A stretch of DNA of 32,000 nt from positions 3,210,001 to 3,242,000 of the forward strand of contig NZ_CP147990.1 in the NCBI RefSeq assembly GCF_037902255.1, written 5' to 3'. The notes below the pieces were generated by a model that was not told where the DNA came from, made no database searches, and saw only the letters and a list, made by a program, of their open reading frames with translations. Position numbers and translations under genes: made by a program. This DNA comes from Candidatus Electrothrix sp. GW3-4. GTDB taxonomy: Bacteria > Desulfobacterota > Desulfobulbia > Desulfobulbales > Desulfobulbaceae. Positions 6,655 to 27,988 of this stretch are shown here, one piece after another; position 1 is the first letter of the stretch; each line of letters opens with the position of its first letter.

Positions 6655-6674
6655 AGGCCAGCAATGTGGCCTGT
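6653..6674 (-). promoter_or_regulatory. Intercistronic stem-loop (8 bp perfect stem, 6 nt loop)
   Basis: acaggcca-gcaatg-tggcctgt lies between the stop of the Zn-ribbon/LysM gene (6705) and the start of the 477 aa gene. No U-tract follows on the transcribed minus strand, so it is not a canonical terminator. Confidence 0.3.
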
Positions 6675-6704
6675 TCTCTCTCTTCCTTTTTGCCTTTTCT
6701 GACG

Positions 6705-7766
6705 TCAGTGCAAGATAACCCGAACCGTTGCACCGGGTTGAATATCGGGCGTTTGCTCGTAGAATACCCTTTCAGATGATCCTGGTGCAGCAAAGCGCTC
6801 CTCTATGGTTTGTTGCGTTTCTCCGCCCCACACCGTATGCTTCCACAACACCAGACCATCTCGCCATTCTATCCGGCGGGTATAGATATCCGTCAACACG
6901 GTGCGATCATTAAACAGACGCAGGCTCTCTTCGTCATGGATATCACTGATAACAAGCCCTGGATTCTGTTCCATGATCACGGGATAATACTTGCCGTTAC
7001 CGTAAAAATGCTCGGCAATGTCCCACAAGGTATCGGTTTCCTTTATCAGATATAAAAAAGTTTTTTCCGACCATTGTTCTTCAAACAACACATCAGACAT
7101 AAGCTCGACCGATGGTTCGTCAGTGTTGCTCACAGTTTCGGTTTCCTCTGCCAGTACAACCTCTGCATCCTCGGGCACTGGCTTTTCCGAAGCATTCTCC
7201 CTCACCTCAAACGCTTCTGTTCCTCTTTTGTTCCCCGGTTCCCCGGTCGTTAAACTGGCAATCCGGAACTCGCCAGTTTGCTCAACCTGCTGACCTTCCT
7301 TTGAAGCAGAAGCACCATGTCCTTCCGCCATGTCCTTGTCCTTAGCGCTCGCCTCGAGATCCTCCTCATAGATAAGCGGATCATCCTCTGCAAAAGTCTC
7401 CTCTTCTTCGCCCCCCACCTTCTCAGACTCAGGCAGAACACAGAGCACCTGCTTTGCCTGCTCGCTGTTCTGCTCTGCTACCTGAAGATCCGTCTGCAAG
7501 GCAACCATACGTTGCTTTAAGGCTTGCACCCGTCCCTTTGCCTTCAAAGAAAAATAGAAAAAACTCGTCCCAATAAGGACCAGGAGCAAGAAAAGGAGGA
7601 GGACAGCGCGCCGGGTGCTGGAGCGATCCTCCTTTCCTGCCTCTTTCGCAGCCAGCGTCTCTAAGACCTGAAAACAGGTCAGATCAGCATCGCATTGCGG
7701 GCAGTTTTTACTGTCAGGCGGTATACCCGGTCGTTCACAGACAGGACAGGTTAACTGGTCAGACAT
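6705..7766 (-). CDS. Zn-ribbon / single-TM / coiled-coil / acidic linker / tandem LysM-like protein
   Basis: 353 aa. The N-terminus has CPVC-x11-CPQC and a TM segment AVLLLFLLLVLIGTSFFYFSL. The C-terminus has YLIKETDTLWDIAEHFYGNGKYYPVIMEQNP (a YgaU-type LysM signature) and a second, degenerate LysM-like unit. Its ATG overlaps the Hsp70 stop (TAATG at 7764-7768). Confidence 0.7.
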   Translation of the reverse strand: MSDQLTCPVCERPGIPPDSKNCPQCDADLTCFQVLETLAAKEAGKEDRSSTRRAVLLLFLLLVLIGTSFFYFSLKAKGRVQALKQRMVALQTDLQVAEQNSEQAKQVLCVLPESEKVGGEEEETFAEDDPLIYEEDLEASAKDKDMAEGHGASASKEGQQVEQTGEFRIASLTTGEPGNKRGTEAFEVRENASEKPVPEDAEVVLAEETETVSNTDEPSVELMSDVLFEEQWSEKTFLYLIKETDTLWDIAEHFYGNGKYYPVIMEQNPGLVISDIHDEESLRLFNDRTVLTDIYTRRIEWRDGLVLWKHTVWGGETQQTIEERFAAPGSSERVFYEQTPDIQPGATVRVILH

Positions 7767-10111
7767 TATTTCCGAATATCCCTATGGATTTTCTGGGTGC
7801 TCATGGCATAATTCTCCAGGACCTCATCCACCTCTGGCAGGACAGCATGCAGCTTGTCTGCCACAGAATCATCCTGTTTTTCTGCGGCCTCCAGGACCTC
7901 TGCAATGACCCGCAAAAACTTTTTTGCCTTGCCCGGATCTGTTTTAAAACAGATCTCACTGGCGTTTTCTATCTGCATCAGGGTATTGACCTGGGCCAGC
8001 CGCTTATCATCCAGGGCAGCGGCCAGGGCTGCGGATGCCCGCATCGTCTCCTCGTATGAGCCATTCTCGTCAACCTGACGCAGTTTTTCTATCCTACTCC
8101 GAAGCAGTTCCTGCATCCTGGGGTCAATCAGCACGCCGTAATCATCCAGCATACTTTCGGCGTAGTAGAGTTGGGTCAGGGGAGCCTCTTCATTGGCCGC
8201 AATCTTGATGGCCTTATGGATCTGGTTGCGGGCCTGTTCATATCGTGTTTCATCCACAGACTCGTCTTGCGGATCAACCACCCCATGAATAGATCCGATG
8301 AGGGATCGTGCCCGATTCTGCAAATCGATAATCGTATAGGTAGAATACTGTGCTTTATCAGCATCAGCAATTGCTTGTTCAAGCGCAAGAAAAAGTTTTT
8401 CATCGGCCTTGCCCCGGGACAGGGTTCGTGAGATAGCCACCTCAGGATGATTCAGGAGAGCTGCATTGACGGAGACGAGATTGTTTTCATCAATATTCAG
8501 GGTGATTTCTATCCGAGCAGGCATCTGTTTTTTTCGCGATGTCTTCTGCGATGTTTCCAGCTCCTCCTCTTTTCCTCTCTCTTTCTCCTGATCAATGCCC
8601 AGCCACAGATCCCCGATACCCTGCTCTCTCCTGTTAACCACATTATAAAACTTCATATGGACCAGTTCCTGCTCAGGATCAACCAGCTGAAAGACCTCTG
8701 TGCTGGAGCAGGGCAGCGGAGTATTTTTCTCCACCATCAAAAAACGCTGATCATTTTCCAGCTTGATATAATAATCATGGGCAGCAGCATGGACGATCTC
8801 CACTACCCCGTGTTCCACCGTATGCCCTTCCAGATCAAAGCCACAATGGGAACAGGCAGAGGCATTCTGGGCCGTATTCCTGGTACATTGAGGACATTCA
8901 ACGGTATCTGCAAGACGATGACTGAGAATAGCGGCCCCTTCCGCAATAGCGAGCATAGGGCGCTCATGGAGAAGAACTTTCCCCTGACCAAACTCCTCCT
9001 GCAAGACCTGAATAACGCAGGGGATACGGGAGCTCCCCCCGACGAGCAGTACATTATCGATCAGATCTTCGGTAAAATGAACATCAACAATCACGCCCCG
9101 AACCAGCTTCAGCATGGATCGCAACAAAGGAGTCATCATGCTCTCAAAGCGGATACGAGGCAGTTCCACCTCCACATCAAAGGGATCCCCATCTTTATCC
9201 TGCAAAACACCAAGAATTTCAATACAGGTCTCCTCCTGATCGCTCAGGGCTATCTTGGCCTTTTCCACAGCGGTCTTCAGCTCAGCAAGAAACTTATTCC
9301 GCCGGGCAGGCTTCTGCTGCTCAATCAGGGCACGGATATCCTCAACATCCTCTTCCCGTGCGGTCTCTTGCAGGACATAGTCTATCAGCAGCTGGTCAAT
9401 ATCCTCGCCACCCAGCCACATATCACCGCCCTTGCCCATCTCGATGATGCGGCCACCGCTGATAGTCAGGATGGAAAGATCCAGGGTTCCGCCACCAAAG
9501 TCAAAGACCAGCACGGTTCGCCCATCATCACCGGAGATCTTATCCACCCCAAAGGAGATCGCGGCGGCAGTGGGCTCGGGGAGAAGACGACGCACCTTGA
9601 GTCCTGCTAAGGCAGCTGCCGTCCTGGTCGCGTGTTTCTGCTTATCATTAAAATAGGCAGGTACTGTGATCACAGCAGCGTCCACCTCATCACCTAATGC
9701 GGCCTCGGCGTCTGCCTTCAGCTTGGCCAGGATCTTGGCTGAAATCTCCTCTGGGGTAAATTCCCTGCCATTAATCTGGAGAGCAAGACTATTGGCCGAG
9801 CCCCGGGAGTGGGTGGCAAGCTGATAATGCAGGCTCTGCTTCGTGATCAACTCCTGCACCTCTTGCTCATGAAAATTCCGACCGATGAGCCGCTTCACTG
9901 CGGTTATGGTATGCTCTGGTTCCTGGCGGATCCACTCCAGGGCATCACGGCCCACAATAAACTCCGGCCTGCGCATCAGGCGTTTCTTCACCATCACGCA
10001 GGAGGGGGTGATGTATTCGCCTTCTGCGTTCTTCAAGACCTCTGTGCTCACCTTTTTGACGGCAACAACAGAGTTGGTGGTTCCGAGATCTATACCTATT
10101 GATTTTTTCAT
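7766..10111 (-). CDS. Non-canonical Hsp70-family ATPase with an inserted zinc ribbon and a long helical C-terminal region
   Basis: GIDLGTTNSVVAV, DFGGGTLDLSIL and VLLVGGSSRIPCV are actin-fold Hsp70 NBD motifs. CPQC-x10-CSHC follows the NBD. I place the start at ATG 10111 (MKKSIGIDLG), because the tracked start at 10198 would overlap sdhB. Confidence 0.85.
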   Translation of the reverse strand: MKKSIGIDLGTTNSVVAVKKVSTEVLKNAEGEYITPSCVMVKKRLMRRPEFIVGRDALEWIRQEPEHTITAVKRLIGRNFHEQEVQELITKQSLHYQLATHSRGSANSLALQINGREFTPEEISAKILAKLKADAEAALGDEVDAAVITVPAYFNDKQKHATRTAAALAGLKVRRLLPEPTAAAISFGVDKISGDDGRTVLVFDFGGGTLDLSILTISGGRIIEMGKGGDMWLGGEDIDQLLIDYVLQETAREEDVEDIRALIEQQKPARRNKFLAELKTAVEKAKIALSDQEETCIEILGVLQDKDGDPFDVEVELPRIRFESMMTPLLRSMLKLVRGVIVDVHFTEDLIDNVLLVGGSSRIPCVIQVLQEEFGQGKVLLHERPMLAIAEGAAILSHRLADTVECPQCTRNTAQNASACSHCGFDLEGHTVEHGVVEIVHAAAHDYYIKLENDQRFLMVEKNTPLPCSSTEVFQLVDPEQELVHMKFYNVVNRREQGIGDLWLGIDQEKERGKEEELETSQKTSRKKQMPARIEITLNIDENNLVSVNAALLNHPEVAISRTLSRGKADEKLFLALEQAIADADKAQYSTYTIIDLQNRARSLIGSIHGVVDPQDESVDETRYEQARNQIHKAIKIAANEEAPLTQLYYAESMLDDYGVLIDPRMQELLRSRIEKLRQVDENGSYEETMRASAALAAALDDKRLAQVNTLMQIENASEICFKTDPGKAKKFLRVIAEVLEAAEKQDDSVADKLHAVLPEVDEVLENYAMSTQKIHRDIRK

Positions 10112-10172
10112 GAGTGTTTCTTCAACGCCTTGTCCAGAGGTTCCTGCCTGTTCTTCTTTCACTCCAGCCAGT

Positions 10173-10934
10173 TTACTCGCCAAACAAGGTCGCTGCAAGG
10201 TACTCTCGGTTCATTCGGGCAATATGGCGGATAGAAATCCCCTTAGGACAGACCTGCTCGCATTCCCGATGATTACTGCACGAACCAAAGCCCTCCTTGT
10301 CCATAGCCGCCACCATGGACAAGGCACGCTGCTTCCGTTCCGGCTGCCCTTGGGGCATAAGGGCCAGCTGAGAAATCTTGGCAGAGGTAAAAAGCATGGC
10401 TGCTGCATTAGGGCAGGCGGCAACGCAGGCACCGCAGCCGATACAGGCCGCTGCATCCATGGCCTGCTCAGCCTGGGGCTGACTCACCGGCACGGCATTG
10501 GCATCCGGGGCAGAACCGGTATTCATAGAGACAAAACCACCGGCCTGGATGATACGATCAAAGGCGGAGCGATCCACCATCAGGTCTTTCACCAAGGGAA
10601 AGGCCCTGGTGCGGAAGGGCTCAATACAGATCACCTGCCCGTCCTGAAAATGGCGCATGTGAAGCTGACAGAGCGTGGTTCCCTGCTCCGGCCCATGCGC
10701 GATGCCATCAACCACGGCTCCGCACATGCCGCAGATCCCTTCCCGGCAGTCATGGTCAAAGGCCACGGGCTCTTTTCCTTCTAGGGTCAGCTGCTCGTTC
10801 AGGACGTCCAGCATCTCCAGAAAGGACATATCCGTGCTGATCTCTTGCAGCGTGTAGGTTTCCAGGCTGCCTTCCGCTGTTTCGCTCGCCTGTCGCCAGA
10901 CCTTGACTGTAATGGATATCTTCTTTGCTGACAT
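10173..10934 (-). CDS. sdhB: Succinate dehydrogenase / fumarate reductase iron-sulfur subunit
   Basis: Cys clusters CREGICGMCG, CIGCGACVAACP and CSNHRECEQVCP match the 2Fe-2S, 4Fe-4S and 3Fe-4S ligands. ATG at 10934 is preferred; the tracked start at 10955 is TTG. Confidence 0.9.
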   Translation of the reverse strand: MSAKKISITVKVWRQASETAEGSLETYTLQEISTDMSFLEMLDVLNEQLTLEGKEPVAFDHDCREGICGMCGAVVDGIAHGPEQGTTLCQLHMRHFQDGQVICIEPFRTRAFPLVKDLMVDRSAFDRIIQAGGFVSMNTGSAPDANAVPVSQPQAEQAMDAAACIGCGACVAACPNAAAMLFTSAKISQLALMPQGQPERKQRALSMVAAMDKEGFGSCSNHRECEQVCPKGISIRHIARMNREYLAATLFGE

Positions 10935-11096
10935 TGCTTTTTTTTTTGTCTGCAATTATTCTTGGTCGTCCTGCTGTAGCTGCTCAATCATCTCTGGAGC
11001 AAGCCCGATAAACAATGGCAAGATTCGGAATGATGATCACAGGTTGCTCAAACTCTATTTATGACTCGCTGTGCAGATGGGATAGCCTACAATCGA

Positions 11097-11529: not shown

Positions 11530-13458
11530 TTATTTATAACTCCGCTGCGACGGCGTAACCGCCTCGAACTGCAACGGCTCCTGATGGAGAAAAGGCGGCT
11601 GCCCGGCCCCTCTATGCTCCCAAACCGTCACATGCGAATACTGCGCATCATCCCGCTTGGCCTCATGCTCCTCAGTCTGACTTTCCTCCCGCAGATGACA
11701 ACCGCAGGACTCTTTCCGCTCCAGGGCATCCATAACCATGACCTCAGCAAACTCCAGGAAATCCGCCACCCGTCCAGCGCGTTCCAGAGACTGGTTCAAC
11801 TCCTGTCCGGTCCCAGGCACATAAACATTGCTGTAAAATTCTTCGCGAATCGCCGGAATCTCAGCAAGAGCCTTGTTGAGCCCCTCTTCGTTCCGGGACA
11901 TCCCGCAATACTCCCAAAGCAGGGCACCGAGCTTGCGGTGATAATAATCCACCGGCTGAGTGCCAGATTTCTTCCAGTCCCGATGACGCAATAGCCGGGC
12001 AACCCGCGCCGTCACCTCCTCCTTTGTCTCGCTAAAAGCCACATCCTCCGCTGCCGGACGATCAGAGCCAGCCTTAGCCAGGTAATTCCCCAAGGTCACA
12101 GGCAGGATAAAATACCCGTCTGCCAAGCCCTGCATAAGGGCACTGGCCCCGAGCCGGTTGGCGCCGTGGTCGGAAAAATTGGCCTCACCAATGACGAATA
12201 AGCCGTCTAACGAGGATTGGAGCTGATAATCTACCCAAAGGCCACCCATGCTATAATGCACTGCCGGGTAGATCATCATCGGTTCCTTAGCCGGATCAGA
12301 TGCAGTAATGCGCTCGTACATCTGAAAGAGATTACCGTATTTCTTCAAGATGGTAGCCACACCATCCCGCTCAATGGCCTCAGCAAAATTCAGATAGACC
12401 GCCTGCCCGGTCTCGCCCACGCCCTGCCCTTGGTCGCAGACCTCCTTGGCATTACGCGAGGCCACATCCCGGGGCACCAGGTTACCAAAGGCCGGATATC
12501 TGCGTTCCAGATAATAATCGCGCTCTGCTTCTGGAATATCCGCCGGGCTACGACGGTCATCCCTATTTTTCGGCACCCAGACCCGCCCATCATTACGCAG
12601 ACTCTCGCTCATTAGGGTCAGCTTGGACTGATAATCACCATGCACAGGAATACAGGTCGGGTGAATCTGAACAAAGCAAGGATTGGCAAAACCAGCTCCC
12701 CGCCGGTGCGCCCGCCAGGCCGCCGTGACATTGCTGGCCATAGCATTGGTGGACAGGTAAAAGGCATTGCCGTAGCCACCCGTGGCCAAGACCACCGCAT
12801 TGGCCGAATACCGTTCCAGTTCACCGGTAAGCAGATTACGGACAATAATCCCCCGTGCCTGCCCATCAACGACAACCAGGTCCATCATCTCTCGTCGAGG
12901 ATAGATGGTGACCTTACCCGCAGCCACCTGCCGCATCAGGGCAGAATAGGCTCCGAGCAAGAGCTGCTGGCCGGTCTGACCACGGGCATAAAAGGTACGA
13001 GAGACCTGGGCTCCACCAAAGGAACGATTAGCCAGCGTGCCACCGTATTCCCTGGCAAAGGGTACGCCCTGGGCCGCACAATGATCAATGATGGCGTTGG
13101 AAATCTGGGCAAGACGATAGACATTGGCCTCGCGGGAACGAAAATCGCCGCCCTTGATGGTATCATAAAAAAGGCGGAAGACTGAATCGCTGTCGTTTTG
13201 GTAATTCTTGGCCGCGTTGATTCCGCCCTGGGCTGCAATGGAATGGGCGCGGCGGGGGCTGTCCTGAATACAGAACGACTTGACCTTATAGCCAAGTTCT
13301 CCCAAAGAGGCCGCTGCTGAGGCCCCGGCCAGGCCGGTACCCACGACAATGATTTCATATTTACGCCGGTTTGCCGGGCTGACCAATTTATTGCTGAAAC
13401 GGCAGGCGTCCCATTTTTCGTGCAAAGAACCAGGTGGGATATGGGGATGAAGATGCAT
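11530..13458 (-). CDS. sdhA: Succinate dehydrogenase / fumarate reductase flavoprotein subunit
   Basis: 642 aa. [12 protein letters not shown] is a FAD-binding Rossmann motif, [11 protein letters not shown] contains the His used for covalent FAD attachment, and the family C-terminal domain is present. Confidence 0.92.
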
Positions 13459-13636
13459 GGGAATGCTCTCTAGTAAAAAGCGTAACGAAATTACCTCAAG
13501 AAGCCGCCTGTACAGGCATGCTCTGAAGAAAGGTGGAATAAATAAAGCAGAAGAGAGGGTATTTCCAGATTATCAGGAACAGACCAGTAAGGCTCTATCA
13601 CATTGACATATGATAAAAAGCAACTTGAGTCCTTCC

Positions 13637-14266
13637 CTACCATAGGGCCACAATAACTGCAAAAAAAACGAGACAGATGAGTACTGCTAACGCGCAGGCC
13701 CCAAGGCGGGTTACATTATGATACCGGGGATAATAAAGCCCCCAGGTCTGCAACAAGGACCAAAAGCCATGACTGGTGTGCAGAGTCAGGGCTGTGATGC
13801 CCAAAAGATACAACAGGGTATAGAGGGGGGTGGTCAGCGTCTGGTCCACGACATCCGCTATCGATCCAGAGTCTTCAACAAAGCGAACATTGCAAAGATG
13901 CAGCAGGAGAAAGGCAAGAATAATCAGTCCGGTCCACGGCATGGTTCGGGAGACCCAAGTGTCTCCTCCTGCGGAACTCGCTACAACATACCGACGACCA
14001 ATGGCCTTCCGATTCTTCAAAAAAAGGCTGATACCAAAAACGATATGAGTCAAAAAGATGATGAGCAGAAAAAATTCTACCGCAGGCACCAGCGGACCTA
14101 AGGAGTGTAACTGCTCCGCATAGGCGTTAAAGGCTGCCTTTCCCTGAAAGATAAAGCTGTTACCTACGGCGTGACTCAGCAGAAAGACACCAAGAAAAAA
14201 GCCGGTAAGGGCCATGGTATACTTTCTGCCAAGTGATGAGAGAGTCCCTTGCAGGAAATCGAACAT
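13637..14266 (-). CDS. sdhC: Succinate dehydrogenase / fumarate reductase cytochrome b subunit (single-subunit b558-type anchor)
   Basis: 209 aa with about five hydrophobic helices. N-terminal GRKYTMALTGFFLGVFLLSHAVGN and conserved His residues are present. It sits directly upstream of sdhA. Confidence 0.8.
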   Translation of the reverse strand: MFDFLQGTLSSLGRKYTMALTGFFLGVFLLSHAVGNSFIFQGKAAFNAYAEQLHSLGPLVPAVEFFLLIIFLTHIVFGISLFLKNRKAIGRRYVVASSAGGDTWVSRTMPWTGLIILAFLLLHLCNVRFVEDSGSIADVVDQTLTTPLYTLLYLLGITALTLHTSHGFWSLLQTWGLYYPRYHNVTRLGACALAVLICLVFFAVIVALW

Positions 14267-14275
14267 ACTATCGAC

Positions 14276-17200
14276 TTATCCTTTTTGCAGTTCTTTTCTC
14301 AGTTGGTTGAATTCCTCCATCATGGCCTCGCGAAGCTGAGAGAAGCCCTCCTTAACCTGATGAACCGCATCCTGACTACTGACACTAGGGGAAGAAACAG
14401 GTGCTGTAGGGGCCGCATGGTGAGCCATATCCTCCTCGTTGCGAGCTATGACCCAATGGAAAAACTCCTGCTGCCAAGCGGTGTAATGATGCACCAAGGC
14501 CGTGAGTTCAAACGGGTCATCAGCAGCAAGTTCAAGTCCAGCTGCCAGTTCTTGGACCACGACTTGATCTTCAGTCTCCAGCTCAGGCTTTTGCCCGATA
14601 AGAGCGGTTGCCGATTCCAGGAGATGGAGAATCACTGTCTGCTGTGGAGTTCCTCCGGCCCTTTTTTTGGCAGCAACGGCCAGCTCATGAACTTGCTGTA
14701 CATTATCAAGAGATGGATTCAATGCGATAGCGGCTGCCGCAGTCGAAAAAGACGCCGCATCAAAAAGCAGTTCAGCATCTTCAGCATCATCCGCTTCTAA
14801 GCCGTCTGTATCGTCCTCCTCTCCAAGATGTTCACCTTCTTCGTCGCTCTCTAAGAAAGAAACCGACTCCGTCTTCTGGGCTTTCTCAAATTCTCCAGCA
14901 ACGACATCTTCAGTCGACAAGAGCTCGCTCGCTCTCTGCTCCTCAGTGGTCTGTTGTTGCTCAAGCTCTTGATCAAGTAAAAGCTCACCGTCGTCCTCAT
15001 CCGGGACTGCTTCGGCGCTCGCCTCTGTGTCCGGGGTAATTGCAAAATGGCTTCCTAAAGCCACCTCAGCTTCCTGCTCATCAGTTTCCAACAGGTCCGC
15101 ATCAAGGTTCAGATCAACATCTTCATCTTCCGACCCTTCGCTGCTCAGGTCGCCTTCTTGGCCCTCTTCATCATCAAGTGTCAGAACAAGGTCTTCAGAG
15201 TCTTCCTCGACATCCTCTAAAGAGTCTGTCAAGAGAGAAGCATTTTCCTCATCAAGGGACAAGGCGAATTCGTCCTCGACATCACCCTCTTCGGCTACTT
15301 CAGCCTGCTCGGGCTCGCCAGCTGCCTCATCTTCCTCGGCAAAACCGAAGAAGCTTTCCTCTTCAGCTGCTTCTGAGGTCGACTCTGAAGCAACAGCACT
15401 GTCATCAGCATCAGCATCGCCAAAGGAAAAATCTGATAATTCGTCTTCACCTGAATCGTCATCATCAAGGGACAAGGCGAACTCATCTTCGACATCACTC
15501 TCGGCGGCTACTTCAGCCTGCTCGGGCTCGCCAGCTGCCTCATCTTCCTCGGCAAAACCGAAGAAGCTTTCCTCTTCAGCTGCTTCTGAGGTCGACTCTG
15601 AAGCAACAGCACTGTCATCAGCATCAGCATCGCCAAAGGAAAAATCCGATAATTCGTCTTCACCTGAATCGTCATCATCAAGGGACAAGGCGAACTCATC
15701 TTCGACATCACTCTCGGCGGCTACTTCAGCCTGCTCGGGCTCGCCAGCTGCCTCATCTTCCTCGGCAAAACCGAAGAAGCTTTCCTCTTCAGCTGCTTCT
15801 GAGGTCGACTCTGAAGCAACAGCACTGTCATCAGCATCAGCATCGCCAAAGGAAAAATCCGATAATTCGTCTTCACCTGAATCGTCATCATCAAGGGACA
15901 AGGCGAACTCATCTTCGACATCACTCTCGGCGGCTACTTCAGCCTGCTCGGGCTCGCCAGCTGCCTCATCTTCCTCGGCAAAACCGAAGAAGCTTTCCTC
16001 TTCAGCTGCTTCTGAGGTCGACTCTGAAGCAACAGCACTGTCATCAGCATCAGCATCGCCAAAGGAAAAATCCGATAATTCGTCTTCACCTGAATCGTCA
16101 TCATCAAGGGATAACGCGAATTCGTCCTCGACATCACCCTCTTCGGCTACTTCAGCCTGCTCGGGCTCGCCAGCTGCCTCATCTTCCTCGGCAAAACCGA
16201 AGAAGCTCTCCTCTTCAGCTGCTTCTGAGGTCGACTCTGAAGCAACAGCACTGTCATCAGCATCAGCATCGCCAAAGGAAAAATCCGATAATTCGTCTTC
16301 ACCTGAATCGTCATCATCAAGGGATAACGCGAATTCGTCCTCGACATCACCCTCTTCGGCTACTTCAGCCTGCTCGGGCTCGCCAGCTGCCTCATCTTCC
16401 TCGGCAAAACCGAAGAAGCTCTCCTCTTCAGCTGCTTCTGAGGTCGACTCTGAAGCAACAGCACTGTCATCAGCATCAGCATCGCCAAAGGAAAAATCCG
16501 ATAATTCGTCTTCACCTGAATCGTCATCATCAAGGGACAAGGCGAACTCATCTTCGACATCACTCTCGGCGGCTACTTCAGCCTGCTCGGGCTCGCCAGC
16601 TGCCTCATCTTCCTCGGCAAAACCGAAGAAGCTCTCCTCTTCAGCTGCTTCTGAGGTCGATTCTGAAGCAACAGCACTGTCATCAGCATCAGCATCGCCA
16701 AAGGAAAAATCCGATAATTCGTCTTCACCTGAATCGTCATCATCAAGGGACAAGGCGAACTCATCTTCGACATCACTCTCGGCGGCTACTTCAGCCTGCT
16801 CGGGCTCGCCAGCTGCCTCATCTTCCTCGGCAAAACCGAAGAAGCTTTCCTCTTCAGCTGCTTCTGAGGTCGATTCTGAAGCAACAGCACTGTCATCAGC
16901 ATCAGCATCGCCAAAGGAAAAATCCGATAATTCGTCTTCACCTGAATCGTCATCATCAAGGGACAAGGCGAACTCATCTTCGACATCACTCTCGGCGGCT
17001 ACTTCAGCCTGCTCGGGCTCGCCAGCTGCCTCATCTTCCTCGGCAAAACCGAAGAAGCTTTCCTCTTCAGCTGCTTCTGAGGTCGATTCTGAAGCAACAG
17101 CACTGTCATCAGCATCAGCATCGCCAAAGGAAAAATCTGATAATTCGTCTTCACCTGAATCGTCATCATCAAGGGACAAGGCAAATTCGTCATCAATCTC

Positions 17201-20095
17201 ATCATCTAACGGCAGAACAAACTCGTCGCTAAGCTCGACAGCTTCTTCTGACTTTTCGATAGAGGTTGAAGGTTCATCATCAAGCAATAGGGCAAACTCG
17301 TCTCCAAGCTCAACCTCTTCTTCTGCCTTATCGTCCGAACCTGCTGTACTCTCCTCTTCCAGCTCAAAGAAACCATCTAGGGAGTCAGCTTGTTCACCCG
17401 ACTCAGAGGAAATTTCGATCTCTTCCTCACTCTCGAAAGAGAAATCAGCAGACTCATCATCACCTGATTCGTCATCGTCTTCAAACGACAAGACGAAATC
17501 ATCATCAAGTTCGGTATCCTCTCCGGGTGTTTCATCGTCAAGTGATAAGGTAAATTCCTCATCAAGCCCGATATCATCGGCTGTCTCGTCCAAGGAATCT
17601 GGGTCTATCGATACAACCTCCTCAGCAGAATCCGAGAAGACATCGGTGAACTCCTCTTCCTCGCTGTCAGAGGAGAACGCGAGGACTTCATCTGCGTTTT
17701 CTTCTTTATCATCAAGTGAGACAACGAATTCGTCTTCTAACGCTGGAATATCTTCTGCTTCGCCTAAACGTGGTTTCTCAAATTCAGGAGTACCCTCTGT
17801 CTCATCGTCCAGATCGAAGATAGCATCCAGTCCTTCAATTTCTTCTTCTGAATCGGAGGAAAACGCATCGCCTTGATCAATAGTTGCGCTATCCTCTTCT
17901 GTTTCTTCTGTATCAAGAGAAAATCCAGCAATATCTCCATCAAAATCATCTTCGCCACCAAACAACAACTCAGAGCTCTCTTCCTCTGTCCCTATGCTTA
18001 TCTCATCTTGACCTTCATTGAGTGCATCTGATTCAATAAGAGTTTCAGTGGTGCCCCCCTCTTCGCCAACAACAACTTGGTCTTCAGTGGAGTCTTCCTG
18101 GGTATCCTTATCCAACTCAAAAAAGAAATTCAGCTTTTCATCAAGCTCAGCCGCCTTTTCGTCATCAATACCAGAGGCCATCTCATCTTCGTTAAAGCCG
18201 CCCTCTTCATCAGCATCTGCCAGGGCAACAGCTATCTCTTCGCTCTGCTGCCCGTCGTCCATATCGTCCAGGGAAATATCAAGCTCATCAACGTTGACAG
18301 CGGGCGTGTCATCGTCAGCTTCGGTTTCCTGCTCATCCAACAGAGCCCCAACCTCATTTTCGTCACTGTCAAAATCAAAAAACGAATCGTAATCCTCTTC
18401 CCCCTCTAACAGGGCTTCCTCTTCTCCATCAGATCCATCAAAATCTGCTGCGAGCATCTCCTTTTTCCACGACTCAGCACGCGTCTTTTCCTCTTCTTGC
18501 GTGTCCTCATCTTCAACCACATCATCGGAAAAGTCAAAAAACGAATCAAGCTCCACCTCTGATTCACCCAGCTCGCTATCTCCTTTTTCCCCCTCGCCCT
18601 TCAGCGATTCATCAGCAACACTCTTACTCTCTTCTGAGGCAGCCGTCTTTTCTTCTTTGGGTTCTGTTACTTCGTTGGGGGTATCATCAAATTCAAAAAA
18701 AGAATCCAGTTTTTCATCAAGTTCAGCAGTTTTTTCTTCGTCTATTCCGGCAGATACAAGCTCTTCATTAAAGCCGCCATTCTCATCGGCATCGGTCAAG
18801 GCAGGAAGAATGGCCTCTTCTTCTGCAACGTTATCGTCCAGGACGAATTCCTGATCTCCTGCCTCTGTCTCATCTGCAAAGAGGTCTTCATCAAGCCCAC
18901 CCTCTTCCTCGTCGAAGTCAAACTCTTCGACAATGCTTTCCTCATCATCAAGAAAAAATTCACCCGCACTTTCCCCTTCAGCGGAAAAATCAGCACTTGC
19001 ATCAAAATCTTCTGCAAACAAATCCAGGTCTTCATCATCGTCGGCCACAGGAGAATCAAACTCTGCATCGTCTTCAGAAACATCATTTTCAGCCTCTTGC
19101 CCGGGTGTAGCTATTTCAGCAGTTTCTGTGAGTTCCTCTTCATCCCGCTCTTTTTCTTCTTCTCCAGCGCTTTGTTCTGCTGCTCGCTCTGCAGCCGACT
19201 TGGCGATAATAGCCTTCAGACTGTTAAGACTGCCGATCTGCTCAAGCAAAACCCGCTTCCGTTGTTCGTCAGTCAGGTTTGTATCCTGAATCAGCAGCTT
19301 TAACGCGTCATAAAACGCATGCAGAATGGTAAACGAGTCGGGATGGGCGTTTGTCTTTTCCTCTCGTATATATGCCCCTAAGGCCTGCAAGCCCTGCACA
19401 AGAATTTGTGCATCACGATTATCAGTGAGATACTCTCGCAACTCTGTGGCTTCTGCATGAAACTTTTCCAACCCCTCTTGCGTGACCTCCCATTCCAAGC
19501 CAAGAATGGTCGCCTCCATGCTCGTCAGCGGGTCGTCAGCTTCCTCATGTAGCACAGGTGCAGCGCTCTCAAGGTCTCCTGAAATTCTCTCTTCGGGTAG
19601 TGGGGTAGCTTCGGTACGATCTTCGATATAATCCTCGACCTGTTCCCTGTCACCTGTTGTACCGATCTGGTATTGCAGAACTTTAAATTTACGGACATCG
19701 GCCTTGAGCATAGCAGCTATTAACTCACTGCCGAGGTCTGTCGAAGATATTATTTTTTCATAATTATAAAAGAGGGTAAGAAGAAGTTTAATGGCGTTAG
19801 GATGGGCATAGGCGCCCTCTTTCTGAAGATACTTACCGATATTATCCATCCCCTGAAGATAGATCTGCGCTACCTTATCTCCATCCCACAGGGAACGCAG
19901 ATGAGACAACTCCTCGGTCAGCTCTGACAGAGTATCCTCGGTGATATCCCAATCCAGTGAGAGAACTATCGACTTCAGACGAAGAAGGGGCGACTCCTCA
20001 TCGTCGGTAAATTCAAACAAATCAACTTCATCATTATCAAACGACTCATCTGCAAATTGTGTGAGGTCTTCAAATTCGTCTATTGCTGGGGGCAT
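14276..20095 (-). CDS. Giant hyper-acidic repeat protein (1,939 aa) of unknown function
   Basis: An uninterrupted 5.8 kb ORF, co-directional with mglBA. Non-repetitive helical domains occupy both termini, and the core is extremely D/E-rich. The ATG at 20095 is 67 nt after the mglA stop, and the TAA at 14276-14278 is 9 nt before the sdhC ATG. Confidence 0.85.
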   Translation of the reverse strand: MPPAIDEFEDLTQFADESFDNDEVDLFEFTDDEESPLLRLKSIVLSLDWDITEDTLSELTEELSHLRSLWDGDKVAQIYLQGMDNIGKYLQKEGAYAHPNAIKLLLTLFYNYEKIISSTDLGSELIAAMLKADVRKFKVLQYQIGTTGDREQVEDYIEDRTEATPLPEERISGDLESAAPVLHEEADDPLTSMEATILGLEWEVTQEGLEKFHAEATELREYLTDNRDAQILVQGLQALGAYIREEKTNAHPDSFTILHAFYDALKLLIQDTNLTDEQRKRVLLEQIGSLNSLKAIIAKSAAERAAEQSAGEEEKERDEEELTETAEIATPGQEAENDVSEDDAEFDSPVADDDEDLDLFAEDFDASADFSAEGESAGEFFLDDEESIVEEFDFDEEEGGLDEDLFADETEAGDQEFVLDDNVAEEEAILPALTDADENGGFNEELVSAGIDEEKTAELDEKLDSFFEFDDTPNEVTEPKEEKTAASEESKSVADESLKGEGEKGDSELGESEVELDSFFDFSDDVVEDEDTQEEEKTRAESWKKEMLAADFDGSDGEEEALLEGEEDYDSFFDFDSDENEVGALLDEQETEADDDTPAVNVDELDISLDDMDDGQQSEEIAVALADADEEGGFNEDEMASGIDDEKAAELDEKLNFFFELDKDTQEDSTEDQVVVGEEGGTTETLIESDALNEGQDEISIGTEEESSELLFGGEDDFDGDIAGFSLDTEETEEDSATIDQGDAFSSDSEEEIEGLDAIFDLDDETEGTPEFEKPRLGEAEDIPALEDEFVVSLDDKEENADEVLAFSSDSEEEEFTDVFSDSAEEVVSIDPDSLDETADDIGLDEEFTLSLDDETPGEDTELDDDFVLSFEDDDESGDDESADFSFESEEEIEISSESGEQADSLDGFFELEEESTAGSDDKAEEEVELGDEFALLLDDEPSTSIEKSEEAVELSDEFVLPLDDEIDDEFALSLDDDDSGEDELSDFSFGDADADDSAVASESTSEAAEEESFFGFAEEDEAAGEPEQAEVAAESDVEDEFALSLDDDDSGEDELSDFSFGDADADDSAVASESTSEAAEEESFFGFAEEDEAAGEPEQAEVAAESDVEDEFALSLDDDDSGEDELSDFSFGDADADDSAVASESTSEAAEEESFFGFAEEDEAAGEPEQAEVAAESDVEDEFALSLDDDDSGEDELSDFSFGDADADDSAVASESTSEAAEEESFFGFAEEDEAAGEPEQAEVAEEGDVEDEFALSLDDDDSGEDELSDFSFGDADADDSAVASESTSEAAEEESFFGFAEEDEAAGEPEQAEVAEEGDVEDEFALSLDDDDSGEDELSDFSFGDADADDSAVASESTSEAAEEESFFGFAEEDEAAGEPEQAEVAAESDVEDEFALSLDDDDSGEDELSDFSFGDADADDSAVASESTSEAAEEESFFGFAEEDEAAGEPEQAEVAAESDVEDEFALSLDDDDSGEDELSDFSFGDADADDSAVASESTSEAAEEESFFGFAEEDEAAGEPEQAEVAAESDVEDEFALSLDDDDSGEDELSDFSFGDADADDSAVASESTSEAAEEESFFGFAEEDEAAGEPEQAEVAEEGDVEDEFALSLDEENASLLTDSLEDVEEDSEDLVLTLDDEEGQEGDLSSEGSEDEDVDLNLDADLLETDEQEAEVALGSHFAITPDTEASAEAVPDEDDGELLLDQELEQQQTTEEQRASELLSTEDVVAGEFEKAQKTESVSFLESDEEGEHLGEEDDTDGLEADDAEDAELLFDAASFSTAAAAIALNPSLDNVQQVHELAVAAKKRAGGTPQQTVILHLLESATALIGQKPELETEDQVVVQELAAGLELAADDPFELTALVHHYTAWQQEFFHWVIARNEEDMAHHAAPTAPVSSPSVSSQDAVHQVKEGFSQLREAMMEEFNQLRKELQKG
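15250..17194 (-). repeat. Nine tandem 213 bp (71 aa) near-identical repeats plus a partial tenth, inside the giant ORF
   Basis: The period is shown by nine alternate-frame ORFs spaced exactly 213 bp apart (15295, 15508 ... 16999) and by direct reading. The unit is DEFALSLDDDDSGEDELSDFSFGDADADDSAVASESTSEAAEEESFFGFAEEDEAAGEPEQAEVAAESDVE. Confidence 0.95.
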
Positions 20096-20162
20096 AATTT
20101 TTGTCCGGACTCTTCTGAGGTGCCAGTACTCAACAGCGTACCTATACCGTTATTTTATCCCT

Positions 20163-20768
20163 TTACAAGAGTTTCTTCTGTACCGACACCACTGTGGATG
20201 AAATTATCTTTTTCAGTGTTTCAGGAACATTATACCCTGTCAAGGCGCTGGCTTCAAAGGAAGGAACTTTCAATTTACTGTTCAGATCCTTCTCCAAAAC
20301 CGCTGTTGGCAATACCGGGATTCCCTGATTTCGCAGATCCACCTTATTGTACTGCATAACAAGAGGAATCTTAAAGATAGACTCCTTATAGCTCTTGAGG
20401 TTTTCATGCAGCTGATTCAAAGAGCGTATGTTCTTTTCCCGCATGGCCTCCTGGGCGTCAGCAACAAAAACCAAGCCATCCACCCCTTTCAAAACCAGCT
20501 TACGAGTCGCGTTGTACTTGACCTGACCAGGTACAGTATAAAGCTGTATTTTCAACTCGTATCCCTTAATCTTCCCCATATCAAAAGGAAGAAAATCAAA
20601 AAATAAGGTTCGGTCGCCATGGGTCTTCAGGCTGACCATTTCCGACTGGATCTGCTTGCTAAATTTACGATTGATATATTCAAGGTTAGAGGTCTTTCCA
20701 CCCCTGCCTGGACCGTAGTAAACGACTTTTACCTGTACGATTTTCTCGCGTAGATTAATAAAGCTCAA
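20163..20768 (-). CDS. mglA: MglA-type Ras-like small GTPase
   Basis: 201 aa. MSFIN..., P-loop YYGPGRGGKTSN, DRTLFFDFLP, the MglA-specific LYTVPGQ motif, LKGVDGLVFVAD and NKVD closely parallel Myxococcus MglA. Confidence 0.92.
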   Translation of the reverse strand: MSFINLREKIVQVKVVYYGPGRGGKTSNLEYINRKFSKQIQSEMVSLKTHGDRTLFFDFLPFDMGKIKGYELKIQLYTVPGQVKYNATRKLVLKGVDGLVFVADAQEAMREKNIRSLNQLHENLKSYKESIFKIPLVMQYNKVDLRNQGIPVLPTAVLEKDLNSKLKVPSFEASALTGYNVPETLKKIISSTVVSVQKKLL

Positions 20769-20840
20769 TGCTTTTCTCCTGCTGTGTAGGGATTAATGCT
20801 ATTGAAGAGACGAGACGACTCCCTGAAGGCATGATAAATC

Positions 20841-21239
20841 TTACTTACCAGCCCAGAGTTTTCTTATCTGTTCCAGTGCCTTAACAACATTCAGCCTGAG
20901 AAAACCAAGCGAAATATGCTTACCGAACATGGTGATCAGCAAAAGTTCCTCGTCGATTTTCGAAAAATGGATATTACAATCCGTGCCCTTATGAAAGAGT
21001 AAGGAAAACTCCTGCTCTCCGACCAATTTCGCCATAGCATCTACTGTGGCGAAGTTACCGGCTGCCAGAGCTGCGAATGAATAAACATCATATTTGGAAG
21101 TGCCATTGTCCTTAGCCGTAATAATGTTCCCTGCCATGTCAATAATGATGACACAGTCCACTCCTATCTTGATGAGCTGCTCCGACAGGATTTCATCAAT
21201 CTTTTCTAGCTGTTCCTGGCTGACTACACCGTAATTCAT
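20841..21239 (-). CDS. mglB: Roadblock/LC7-domain protein, MglB-like GAP
   Basis: 132 aa. Size, position directly upstream of mglA (the mglBA order, as in Myxococcus) and the roadblock-like pattern (IIIDMAGNIITA...AALAAGNFA) support the call. Confidence 0.8.
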   Translation of the reverse strand: MNYGVVSQEQLEKIDEILSEQLIKIGVDCVIIIDMAGNIITAKDNGTSKYDVYSFAALAAGNFATVDAMAKLVGEQEFSLLFHKGTDCNIHFSKIDEELLLITMFGKHISLGFLRLNVVKALEQIRKLWAGK

Positions 21240-21352
21240 CTGATTTCCTCATTAACATTGCATTGTTTGTCCGGCAGGGGTGAGCCGACCGGCATCTCTC
21301 CATTTTTTGACTATACGCCAGATAATCACAGATATGAAGCTGTTTTTAATGA

Positions 21353-23148
21353 TTATAGTATTTTTTTATTTTTCACCCTATCTCCTTGCAAAGGGACTCT
21401 GCTGAATTTGAGCACATCAACAAGGCCTTTATCCGTAATTTTCAACTCTGGAATAACGGGCAGAGCAAGAAAACTGAGGAGCATGAAAGGATTTTTCACT
21501 GTCCCCCCCAGCTGACCAGCAGCCTTCTCAAGCCCCTGAAGCTGAATGCAGACCTTCTCAGCAGGCTCTGTTGTCATCAGCCCGGCAACCGGCAAGGGAA
21601 GGGCCTCAAGGACTCGTTCTTCTCCTGTTACCACCAGCCCCCCCTGCATCTCAAATATCTTTTTTATCGCCAGCATCATGGAGGCATCATCGACACCAAC
21701 GACGATCAAATTATGAGAATCGTGGGCAATAGTAGAGGCTATAGCCCCCTGCTTAATGCCAAAACCCTGAACAAAACCGATCCCCACATTACCGGTGGCA
21801 TGATGTCGCTCAATAACCGCAACCTTCAAGATATCGCGATCAGGATCAGCAACCACCATCCCCCCCTGACTTTCGCTTTCAGAAAGGCCTGGCCAGTAAT
21901 AATCTGTCCATCAGCACAAGTCATCACCCGTATTTTCCCTGACGTTCCCAGGTCGGCAGGCTTGCTAAGGTCAATCCGATCAGGACGAATCCTCACCGTT
22001 GCCTGCAGAGCAAAAACAGAGGCAGAGGCTTCCTCCTGGTCCGTGATTTCCGCGACCATTTCTCTGTGTTCAGCCACGCATGCACCGGCACAATACACCT
22101 GGCTGACCTGGAACTGCTGCAGATCCTCAAGCACCACCAAGTCAGCCCTATATCCCGGGGCAACAGCACCGAGATGGTTTAGCCTGAAATGACGAGCAGG
22201 GTTCACCGTGACCATCTGTACAGCTGTCACAGCATCTGCACCGAGTTCCACTGCTCGACGGAGCAGGAAATCCATATGTCCGTGTTGTACCAAATCATCG
22301 GCGTGACGATCATCAGTGACCAGCAGGCAACGGTGAGCAGCCGCACTGCGAAAAAGAGGGAGCAACGCCTCCATATTACGGGCGGTTGAACCTTCACGGA
22401 TAAAAACCGCCATTCCTGCCCGCAACTTTTCCCAGGCCTCAGCCAAGGTCGTACATTCATGATCCGAACTGATCCCAGCAGCTACATAGGCCTGCAAGGC
22501 CTTCCCACTCAATCCAGGTGCATGACCATCAGCAAGTCGTCCCAGCCTGCGAGCAGAAAAAATTTTTTCCAGCACCTCAGGATCCCCAGCAATCGTGCCA
22601 GGGAAATTCATCATCTCCGCCAACCCGATAATATCCTGGCGTTCCAGCAACTCCTCTATATCATCAACGGACAACTGGGATCCGCTGCTCTCCATATGGG
22701 TTGCTGGCACACAGGAAGGTGCCAGCCCATACACCGTAAGGGGAGACGATTGAGAGAGCATATAGTCAATCCCGGACATCCCGCAGACATTGGCAATTTC
22801 ATGCGGGTCACAGATGACAGTGGTTGTCCCACAGGGCACAACAGCAGCCGCAAATCGGCAAGGTGTGAGCAGGGAGCTTTCAATATGAATATGCCCATCA
22901 ATAAACCCCGGACAGACATAACGGCCAGCGAGATCAATTTCTTCCTTCCCCTGATATTCGCCTTGCTGATCAATCCCGGCAATACAGCCGTTAATGACAG
23001 CGATATCTCCCTGAGCTACCTCCCCGGTAAAGACATGGACAATCCGCCCCCCTCGCAATACGAGGTCAGCCGGTATCCGGCCAGCAGCACAATCAATCAA
23101 CTGCTTATACAAAGCCTTATCGCTTCCTAATGCTGTCCAGTTCAACAT
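21353..23148 (-). pseudogene. ade: Adenine deaminase, split by a -1 frameshift in a G7 run (C7 on plus strand, 21860-21866)
   Basis: The N-terminal ORF (GFIDGHIHIESS metal-binding motif) and the C-terminal ORF (VAVIERHHATGNVGIGFVQGFG..., AHDSHNLIVVG) overlap at 21826-21859. A G8 tract would read ...KAKVRGGMVVADPD... and give about 598 aa. Confidence 0.85.
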
Positions 23149-26587: not shown

Positions 26588-27988
26588 CTACTCATACCCC
26601 ATAGGTGGATCTTGATTCGTATAACTTTCAAAGGTGGTAATATGGCCGAGAAAGGTCAATTTCACCGTGCCAATTGGGCCGTTACGCTGTTTCCCGACAA
26701 TTAACTCGGCAATGCCCCGATTAGGATTATCTTCAGCTTTATTATAGACCTCGTCTCTATAGATAAACATAATAACATCCGCATCCTGCTCAATAGCTCC
26801 CGACTCGCGCAGATCAGAAAGCTGGGGCCGCTTATCCGTTCGACTCTCCAGGCTTCGGTTTAACTGGGACAGGGCAATAACCGGGACATCCAGTTCTTTG
26901 GCCATCGCTTTAAGAGAGCGAGAAATATCACTGATCTCCTGGGTGCGATTTTCAATCTTGGACTTTCCCTGCATGAGCTGAAGATAATCCACCACCACGA
27001 GACCAAGATCGTGCTCGGATTTCAAACGTCTGGCCTTGGCACGCATCTCCAGGACCGTCATGCCAGCGGTATCATCAATGTAAACAGGGGAGTCAGCAAG
27101 CATACCTGTGGCCCGGGTCAGCTTGGGCCAGTCATGCTCTTGCAAATGACCAGTACGGATCCGTTGCGCATCAATCCGGCCCACCGAGCAGAGCATACGC
27201 AGGGCAAGTTGCTCCATAGACATCTCCAGGCTGAATACCGCCACCGGCACCTTGTTAATCAGGGCAGCATGCTGCACCATATTCATAGCCAAGGCGGTCT
27301 TTCCCATTGACGGTCGGCCAGCCAGGATAATCAGGTCTGCGGGCTGAAGCCCTGCGGTCATTCGGTCCAACTCATCATATCCGGTTGAGATACCGGTAAT
27401 ATGCTCCTTGCGCTCTGCCAGTTTTGTTACCCGATCAAAGGCCTTAGGAACAATCTTTGACATGGGCTCAAACCCCTGCTTTTTTTTGGCCTGAGCTATT
27501 TCAAAAATCGTTTGCTCGGCCTTATCCACGAGGGCCTCAAGGTCATCTTGCGCATCATAGCAGCGGGCCGCCACATCGCTACTGGTCGCGATAAGCCTCC
27601 TCAGGATGGACTTCTCCCGTATAATCCTGGCATGATGGACGAGCATTCCGGTAAAGGGTATAACATCAGTAAGCGATGTTATATACGCAGCACCTCCGAT
27701 CTGCTCTAATCGATTCTGATCACGCAGCAAGCTCGTCACAGTCACTAAGTCATGCGGTTCACTACGTTCAAAGAGACTGACCATAGCTTCAAAGAGCAGC
27801 TTATGGGCATCCCGATAAAAATCATCAGGGGAAAGGAGTTCGACCACTTTTAACAGAGACTTATCCTGAATCAGGATAGTACCGAGCAAGGCCTGTTCCG
27901 CTTCCACATTTTGGGGCGGAATCATTTTGGGGGCAGGAGAAGCAGTTGAGGAGCCTCCATTTTCAAAGAAGGCTGAACTATCAGACAC
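26588..27988 (-). CDS. dnaB: Replicative DNA helicase DnaB
   Basis: 466 aa. PPQNVEAEQALLGTIL is the N-terminal domain signature, GRPSMGKTALAMN is Walker A, and VVVDYLQLM and QLNRSLE are also present. The start is GTG with an AAGGA ribosome-binding site. Confidence 0.95.
   Translation of the reverse strand: MSDSSAFFENGGSSTASPAPKMIPPQNVEAEQALLGTILIQDKSLLKVVELLSPDDFYRDAHKLLFEAMVSLFERSEPHDLVTVTSLLRDQNRLEQIGGAAYITSLTDVIPFTGMLVHHARIIREKSILRRLIATSSDVAARCYDAQDDLEALVDKAEQTIFEIAQAKKKQGFEPMSKIVPKAFDRVTKLAERKEHITGISTGYDELDRMTAGLQPADLIILAGRPSMGKTALAMNMVQHAALINKVPVAVFSLEMSMEQLALRMLCSVGRIDAQRIRTGHLQEHDWPKLTRATGMLADSPVYIDDTAGMTVLEMRAKARRLKSEHDLGLVVVDYLQLMQGKSKIENRTQEISDISRSLKAMAKELDVPVIALSQLNRSLESRTDKRPQLSDLRESGAIEQDADVIMFIYRDEVYNKAEDNPNRGIAELIVGKQRNGPIGTVKLTFLGHITTFESYTNQDPPMGYE

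Follow-up and report, generated by a model that had tools for sequence, protein, structure and literature searches.

MglA and MglB make up the best-studied Ras-like polarity switch of bacteria, and knowledge of this switch comes almost wholly from Myxococcus, where the partners RomR/RomX, RomY, MglC, SgmX, FrzS and AglZ act with it. Other polar organisers are built differently. HubP (Vibrio, Shewanella), FimV (Pseudomonas) and TspA are very large and very acidic polar landmark proteins whose long cytoplasmic part contains tandem acidic repeats; they are linked with how polar flagella, type IV pili or chemotaxis systems are organised. PopZ of the Alphaproteobacteria is a soluble, acidic and anchor-free polar hub in which an interaction motif at the N-terminus is joined by a disordered acidic linker to a helical region at the C-terminus that mediates oligomerisation. 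Here we describe X, the product of a giant acidic open reading frame (ORF; 14276-20095, minus strand) that follows mglB and mglA in Candidatus Electrothrix sp. GW3-4. The window that we analysed is the whole 32,000-nt stretch between positions 3,210,001 and 3,242,000 of contig NZ_CP147990.1, and all positions below are counted within it. The mglB, mglA and X genes behave as a conserved three-gene unit across the order Desulfobulbales, and X is the invariant third gene of the mglBA locus in this entire order, which includes the ecologically important gliding cable bacteria.

Some functional link between X and MglA/MglB is probable, in our estimation. With moderate confidence we favour the more specific proposal that X serves the MglA/MglB switch as a multivalent scaffold or effector, soluble in the cytoplasm.

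Results

X accompanies mglBA throughout the Desulfobulbales

We reached 63 loci with upstream DNA through the N-terminal domain of X and a further six through MglA, making 69 checkable loci, all in the Desulfobulbales. In each of the 63 N-domain-anchored loci mglA lies directly 5' of X on the same strand, and mglB precedes mglA wherever the contig extends far enough. In all six MglA-anchored loci the gene directly 3' of mglA encodes a protein of 836-1,334 aa that contains the N-domain; the 120 matches listed in the MglA search are every one at least 87% identical, that is, members of the same clade. The gap between mglA and X is 0-136 nt. Most lineages have a spacing of about 36 nt, several have only 0-12 nt, and the majority of lineages other than Electrothrix fall between 0 and 60 nt. 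The linkage persists even where the X N-domain has diverged to 35% identity, with MglA at 83-100% identity across the loci. The outer flanks differ. Upstream in cable bacteria is leuS-lptE, in some cases with an adenine deaminase gene; downstream, sdhCAB is found in Electrothrix only, and elsewhere there are convergent ABC-transporter or other genes. It is because the link to mglBA is invariant while the outer flanks change that we regard mglB-mglA-X as a unit of three genes.

The initial annotation, made from the window alone, had proposed X as a candidate partner of MglA/MglB by analogy with HubP and FimV, to be judged by whether homologues of its terminal domains adjoin mglBA in other genomes. 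They do so in all 63 and all six loci on the same strand; the genetic tie to mglBA stands, and the likeness to HubP and FimV is an analogy only. A previous survey of prokaryotic MglA neighbourhoods found that the surroundings of group 1 'vary widely' and named no such partner (PMC4316618). The absence of a conserved neighbour for group 1 in that survey contrasts with the constant adjacency of X here, where MglA is not assigned to a group. In the literature that we searched there was no paper joining MglA with cable bacteria or with Desulfobulbus.

Two family-bearing contigs occur within a single assembly in the pairs L042/L047 (BMS3Bbin14), L062/L063 (NORP205) and L021/L064. Both contigs carry mglB-mglA-X in the first two pairs, and the L064 contig does not extend upstream of the family gene. 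Such pairs represent paralogous units or else strain variants sharing a bin.

A flagellar cluster is found directly upstream of mglB-mglA-X, on the same strand, in 21 non-cable loci, with the order fliC-flaG-fliD-fliS-pilZ-pilZ-fliK-like-flhB-like, the flhB-like gene being small and the adenine deaminase gene sometimes lying between. A Desulfobulbus propionicus assembly (L070) has flhA-flhF-flhG-pilZ upstream instead. Loci with flagellar neighbours are listed under L021-L035, L043, L048-L051, L066, L069, L070, L073 and L074. In neither the cable-bacterial loci nor the window was a flagellar gene found. Cable bacteria glide, possibly by means of type IV pili (PMC10580974).

A canonical MglA and a shortened MglB

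The GTPase gene had been called a clear MglA orthologue with mglB before it, and motifs, full-length structure alignments and the Roadblock domain match all agree with that call. Window MglA contains the P-loop GPGRGGKT (GxxxxGKT), DRTLFFDF(LP) with its Arg, YTVPGQ with the catalytic Gln, and NKVD (N/TKxD), and it aligns column for column with M. xanthus MglA. Among solved structures it matches M. xanthus MglA over residues 1-194 at E 9e-51 and 3t12_A at E 4e-48. In the TxPGQ motif of MglA a Thr replaces the Asp of Ras (PMC3000849). The mglB ORF occupies the cognate position 72 nt upstream of mglA, and an AGGAG ribosome-binding site precedes the mglA start codon by 7 nt. Electrothrix MglA is 99-100% identical as protein, yet the genes differ at 55-81 third positions in the three genomes compared.

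The mglB product matches Pfam Robl_LC7 with 28.6 bits against a cutoff of 23 and aligns with M. xanthus MglB structures at E 1.7e-16; its match to the NCBIfam MglB equivalog (E 3.7e-15, 56 bits) falls under the cutoff of 200. It aligns with residues 8-130 of the 160-aa chain 6h5b_B and stops three residues on. Window MglB is a bare Roadblock domain, without the C-terminal extension present in M. xanthus MglB (the 160-aa chain) and in the 163-aa chain 1j3w_A. In M. xanthus the C-terminal helix of MglB touches and regulates MglA (PMC6785124, PMC6876712), and its absence from the window protein would leave room for another MglA regulator or partner.

MglA and X are complementary in charge. Window MglA has a net charge of +14 and an isoelectric point of 9.8, and the MglA proteins of the clade are unusually basic, at +10 to +16 (median +14, 65 loci), compared with +3 for residues 1-189 of M. 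xanthus MglA. A basic MglA encoded beside a polyanionic X fits electrostatic matching of the two proteins and does not prove it.

These properties would also suit a protein that regulates the nucleotide cycle of MglA as a guanine nucleotide exchange factor, a co-GTPase-activating protein or a sequestering factor, standing in for what RomR/RomX, RomY or the C-terminal MglB helix does in Myxococcus. The strict co-occurrence of X with mglBA, the missing helix of window MglB and the pairing of basic MglA with acidic X are in keeping with such a role, and RomR likewise has a Glu-rich tail. X has neither a receiver domain nor similarity to RomR, RomX or RomY, however, and with its size of 600-2,270 aa, its rapidly evolving copy numbers and its multivalent motifs it suits a scaffold better than a catalytic regulator. 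We consider it unlikely that X is such a regulator; the two roles are not mutually exclusive.

The X reading frame and its family

The initial annotation placed a 5.8-kb ORF 67 nt downstream of mglA on the same strand, and its coordinates proved exact. X is 20.2% Glu and 15.4% Asp (35.6% Asp+Glu), with a net charge of -628 and a mass of ~211 kDa. Over the N-terminal 930 nt, the window gene and its orthologues differ at 25/20/92 sites by codon position in the comparison with L003 and at 81/48/188 in that with L010. Because differences between orthologues are biased to the third codon position, the frame is judged to be under purifying selection, which marks it as a real gene and not a chance ORF.

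X homologues are present in 65 genome loci, and a profile search was run against 1.84 billion cluster representatives. Complete orthologues with conserved N- and C-termini are present in 46 loci, and the profile search returned 939 clusters at E <=0.001, of which 248 were at E <=1e-30. In nearly all of the 150 clusters listed, the match starts within about the first 30 residues, and a few fragments start later. An artefactual origin, whether as a chance ORF in GA-rich repeat DNA or as a mis-assembled repeat, could have been suspected from three observations: the opposite strand holds ORFs of 949 and 730 aa, homologue entries are mostly partial with assemblies breaking in repeats, and the neighbouring adenine deaminase gene has a homopolymer frameshift. 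The third-position bias within the X frame, the 46 complete orthologues with conserved termini and the 939 related clusters refute this for the gene as a whole, and we give it practically no credence. The two plus-strand ORFs (15027-17876 and 15040-17232) lie antisense to the acidic repeats of X and are regarded as by-products of its GA-rich codons and not as genes.

The closest relatives of X, at 85-87% identity over the N-terminal 310 aa, are in Candidatus Electrothrix, followed in order by Candidatus Electronema, Desulfobulbus, Desulfogranum and Desulfocapsa, all of the Desulfobulbales. Two matches labelled Marinimicrobia and Bacteroidales come from contigs only 1-3 kb long, and misbinning is the probable explanation. 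Protein length is 1,421-2,268 aa in Electrothrix, 1,275-1,472 aa in Electronema and 582-1,078 aa (median 887) in 33 other complete members. Most database entries for X are labelled 'partial', since assemblies break in the repeats. A word-indexed search with the C-terminus found Electrothrix relatives only, and the wider kinship of that end was obtained from the loci in a 47-sequence C-terminal alignment.

The initial annotation could assign X to no recognisable family, and wider searching left that statement intact. Neither Pfam nor NCBIfam gave a match at E up to 10 for whole X, its ends, the separate bundles or 29 domain sequences. PDB sequence searches with the domain profile and whole X returned nothing significant, and Foldseek found no PDB match at E <=0.001 for the N-terminal or the C-terminal model. 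Weak matches to CheA P1 (Hpt-like), the vinculin head and some designed bundles raised the idea of an Hpt-like fold; it was rejected, since none of these matches reached significance and there is no Hpt motif. By these sequence and structure comparisons X is a new protein family with a previously undescribed five-helix bundle domain. We define the family by the N-terminal VDLFEF peptide, two bundles that carry the LDWE, LQG, Y and AHP positions, an acidic stretch in which the PALAD-GGF…KLDSFF module occurs one or more times, a further bundle at the C-terminus and a gene position directly 3' of mglB-mglA. Window X has all of these.

Domain architecture of X

X opens with an acidic, Phe-rich peptide of consensus EDLTxFADESFDTDxVDLFEF, predicted to be disordered yet highly conserved (Table 1). 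Two five-helix bundles follow. They are ~25% identical to each other and share the conserved LDWE, LQG, Y and AHP positions. The AlphaFold2 model of residues 1-310 has a mean predicted local distance difference test score (pLDDT) of 73, with 83-91 in the domains, and a disordered acidic linker parts the two bundles. The last ~160 residues, modelled separately, form a third, diverged copy of the bundle, which hhalign relates to the N-domain profile with 93% probability (E 3.3e-7 over 100 columns, from the 47-sequence alignment). The AlphaFold2 model of this copy has five helices with the same length pattern as the N-terminal bundles, at pLDDT 85-96. The long terminal helix that follows may serve oligomerisation.

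Between the folded ends lies the hyper-acidic region. The initial annotation had described structured helical ends around an acidic core with three layers of repetition; the AlphaFold2 models agree with the former, and the latter corresponds to a 71-aa array, a pair of ~45-aa units and degenerate motifs, in a region whose disorder is presumed. An older layer is a family-wide module of ~40 aa with the consensus xPALADxDEEGGFxE-(~19)-E[IL][DE]xKLD[SA]FFGxD and fixed spacing. Proteins from Electrothrix to Desulfobulbus contain one to five such modules each, 84 in total, and a looser form was seen by eye in a Desulfocapsa sequence. The two ~45-aa older units in the window are 56% identical (E 2e-14). 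By eye, the module and the VDLFEF peptide have a Φ-D-x-F-x-F core in common. The nine 71-aa copies differ solely in an AAESD/AEEGD variant, and the repeat has no counterpart outside Electrothrix; the exact copy number hinges on the assembly. Both motif counts and X length vary between Electrothrix genomes, related acidic motifs being present in very different numbers. Because these numbers differ so widely, the array appears to be a recent lineage-specific amplification. Derivation of the 71-aa repeat from the ancestral 40-aa module was considered and is unsupported, the two having the FFxF core alone in common (BLASTP E 3.4). Degenerate DEFxLxLDD and FFxF motifs are abundant around the repeats.

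So much acidity could also mean that X is a general cytoplasmic polyanion, acting as a buffer of divalent cations or polyamines, an entropic spacer or a mimic of nucleic acid or polyphosphate, with its adjacency to mglBA reflecting inherited operon structure. Its Asp+Glu content and net charge, the quick expansion of its repeats, its greatest length in the large-celled cable bacteria and its tight junction with sdhC in Electrothrix would be natural for such a protein. A pure polyanion, however, would have no need of three conserved folded domains, an N-terminal peptide and a 40-aa module kept at fixed spacing across an order, and the link to mglBA is invariant while all other neighbours change. 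We think this explanation rather improbable.

No transmembrane segment is predicted in X, the highest 19-residue Kyte-Doolittle mean being 1.4. Some homologues reach 1.7-1.8 in the Ala/Gly-rich helix 1 of bundle 3, which aligns with helix 1 of the soluble bundle. The acidic N-terminus is not of the signal-peptide kind. Searches of Pfam and NCBIfam found no periplasmic LysM-like domain at E 0.01-10 and no match to the C-terminal (TPR-like) FimV domain, in whose place X has its third five-helix bundle. These results bear on whether X could be a true, divergent member of the HubP/FimV/TspA group. Source databases give certain homologues the name 'pilus assembly protein FimV', a label that comes without any domain match; the large acidic repeat region and the nearby flhF and flhG of one relative point the same way. 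With no LysM or FimV C-terminal domain, no Pfam or NCBIfam match, no membrane segment, no signal peptide and a C-terminus that is a copy of the family's own bundle, such membership is effectively refuted and highly improbable.

Transcription and adjoining genes

Promoter- and terminator-like sites were scanned over 13400-21600 and judged against shuffled sequence. The initial annotation saw no terminator between mglA and the giant ORF, and the scan likewise found no terminator-like site in the spacer. The sigma-70-like match in the spacer overlaps the mglA stop codon. Across the scanned region promoter- and terminator-like matches are at or under the shuffle expectation, and the match 5' of mglB, in a class no commoner than that expectation, is a weak candidate promoter for mglB-mglA-X. 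It is likely that X is co-transcribed with mglA in the window genome. The spacer is ~94% conserved among Electrothrix compared with ~82% for the adjoining coding DNA and is possibly an internal promoter or a translational control element. The spacer also contains a TGGCAC element; a sigma-54 reading of it was ruled out by eye, there being no -12 TTGC element.

On its other side the X stop codon is separated from the sdhC ATG by 9 nt (14267-14275). This 8-9 nt junction is conserved in Electrothrix only (L003, L004, L005, L052), where the polarity unit appears to be fused to a respiratory operon.

The adenine deaminase gene 5' of mglB is split into two overlapping minus-strand ORFs (21826-23148 and 21353-21859; junction near 21856), the frame switching at a run of seven G. 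A single ORF of ~576-612 aa is found in L003, L066 and L067, with the same frame in L001, and remnants only are left in the cable-bacterium loci L004, L005 and L008. Either the assembly is wrong at this homopolymer or the gene is turning into a pseudogene.

Elsewhere in the window, minus-strand genes at 4413-10198 encode an 810-aa Hsp70-like protein (7766-10198), a GrpE-like protein (4413-4940) and products of 353 aa (6705-7766) and 477 aa (5221-6654) without a Pfam match; the cluster is possibly a chaperone module of unusual type. At 299-1891 on the minus strand lies a 530-aa ORF for an IS66-family transposase. In the Electronema-like genome OW818638 (L071 1-3056), the dnaB gene 5' of leuS has an intein (Intein_splicing, LAGLIDADG); the window dnaB (26588-27988, 466 aa) has none. 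Rfam found no RNA family in the window.

Table 1. Position and character of the features of the mglB-mglA-X locus; coordinates are window positions.
Feature	Position	Strand	Description
sigma-70-like promoter match	21310-21338	-	TTCATA-17-TATAGT (9/12); in the 113-nt gap 5' of mglB
mglB	20841-21239	-	132 aa; Roadblock/LC7 GTPase-activating protein
mglA	20163-20768	-	201 aa; Ras-like GTPase; TTG start
mglA-X spacer	20096-20162	-	67 nt; without terminator-like site; TTGTAA-16-TATAGG sigma-70-like match (8/12)
X (giant acidic protein)	14276-20095	-	1,939 aa and stop
X residues 1-35	19991-20095	-	EDLTQFADESFDNDEVDLFEF; acidic Phe-rich N-terminal peptide, conserved in alignment; predicted disordered, pLDDT ~40
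X residues 36-147	19655-19990	-	helical bundle copy 1 (five helices); AlphaFold2 pLDDT 83-89
X residues 189-309	19169-19531	-	helical bundle copy 2 (five helices); AlphaFold2 and domain alignment
X residues 310-1779	14759-19168	-	hyper-acidic region; presumed disordered; net charge -578, 7% Phe
X residues 426-470	18686-18820	-	conserved module copy 1, LPALTDADENGGFNE…ELDEKLDSFFEFD; family-wide
X residues 618-662	18110-18244	-	conserved module copy 2, AVALADADEEGGFNE…ELDEKLNFFFELD; family-wide
Tandem array in X	15249-17182	-	9.1 copies of 213 nt (71 aa), 98% identity; Tandem Repeats Finder; unit DEFALSLDDDDSGEDELSDFSFGDADADD…EESFFGFAEEDE…
X residues 1780-1892	14420-14758	-	helical bundle copy 3 (diverged); hhalign and AlphaFold2
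X residues 1907-1938	14282-14377	-	terminal long helix (…FSQLREAMMEEFNQLRKEL); kept in most of the family; helix pLDDT ~60-67
sdhC	13637-14266		succinate dehydrogenase/fumarate reductase cytochrome b gene
Flavoprotein subunit gene	11530-13458		succinate dehydrogenase/fumarate reductase
Iron-sulfur subunit gene	10173-10955		succinate dehydrogenase/fumarate reductase

Discussion

In the scaffold model that we favour, X would be tethered or oligomerised through its three five-helix bundles and its terminal helix. Contact with basic MglA and/or MglB would be made by the bundles or by the acidic tracts, so that X would accumulate at a site, which we infer to be polar, set by the nucleotide state of MglA. 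The acidic disordered region would display Phe-rich motifs, namely the PALAD-GGF…KLDSFFG module, the VDLFEF peptide and, in Electrothrix, the 71-aa unit, and these acidic motifs would recruit several client molecules at once. In flagellated relatives the clients would probably be polar flagellar and PilZ proteins, the products of the genes immediately upstream, and in cable bacteria they would be the gliding machinery, for example type IV pili. X would thus be analogous to the HubP/FimV polar hubs without being homologous to them or membrane-anchored.

Several points weigh against this proposal. Conserved operon membership does not prove physical interaction, and because X is also only 8-9 nt from sdhC, tight spacing alone is no proof of shared function. 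Given the conserved Electrothrix spacer and its weak sigma-70-like match, X could be transcribed alone. The flagellar linkage is absent from cable bacteria, the Desulfocapsa group and several Desulfobulbus loci. X has no membrane anchor or known polar-targeting domain, and hyper-acidic disordered regions can have unrelated roles.

A more elaborate reading is that X is a membrane-free, condensate-forming polarity hub positioned by a Ras-like GTPase. The bundles would bind the acidic LxxFF-type modules of X itself or of its clients and so build a multivalent matrix, which basic MglA-GTP would nucleate and MglB would dissolve; in cable bacteria, expansion of the repeats would fit the matrix to the large size of the cells. 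We regard this as speculative and rather doubtful. If it were true, X could help to coordinate the direction of gliding along the multicellular filament.

Under the simpler scaffold model X is a concrete candidate for the wiring of MglA to flagella or gliding outside Myxococcus, and it would exemplify a HubP-like acidic hub that has no membrane anchor. The resemblance to HubP, FimV and TspA lies in residues 310-1779, an extensive acidic region with tandem repeats, and in the flagellar genes, including flhF and flhG, that adjoin X in flagellated relatives. X differs from them in lacking the LysM, transmembrane and FimV C-terminal domains, in being predicted to be soluble, in having its own helical bundle in three copies and in that its gene shares an operon with those for a Ras-like GTPase and the cognate GTPase-activating protein.

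Among the Myxococcus partners of MglA, RomR is a polar scaffold in which a folded domain is joined to low-complexity regions of Pro-rich and Glu-rich composition. X greatly exceeds these partners in size and acidity and has no REC, TPR or Roadblock domain and no sequence similarity to them; it gave no Response_reg match, and its N-terminal domains are all-helical bundles. The layout of soluble, acidic PopZ is comparable to that of X, although PopZ is ~180 aa long, is not repeat-rich, has no link to a GTPase and gave no sequence match with X. On a smaller scale, the KLDSFF core of the X module has the L-x-x-F-F form of PIP-box/LxxFF motifs. Motifs of this form insert two aromatic residues into a hydrophobic pocket. 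The sequence LDSFF also turns up in papers on archaeal PCNA-binding proteins. The resemblance is one of form only; in X the first position is not Gln, and nothing ties the protein to replication. By analogy, X would work most like the HubP/FimV or PopZ-type hubs and the RomR scaffold while being a member of none of these groups, and it is best described as a new family within the theme of acidic polar hubs and MglA partners.

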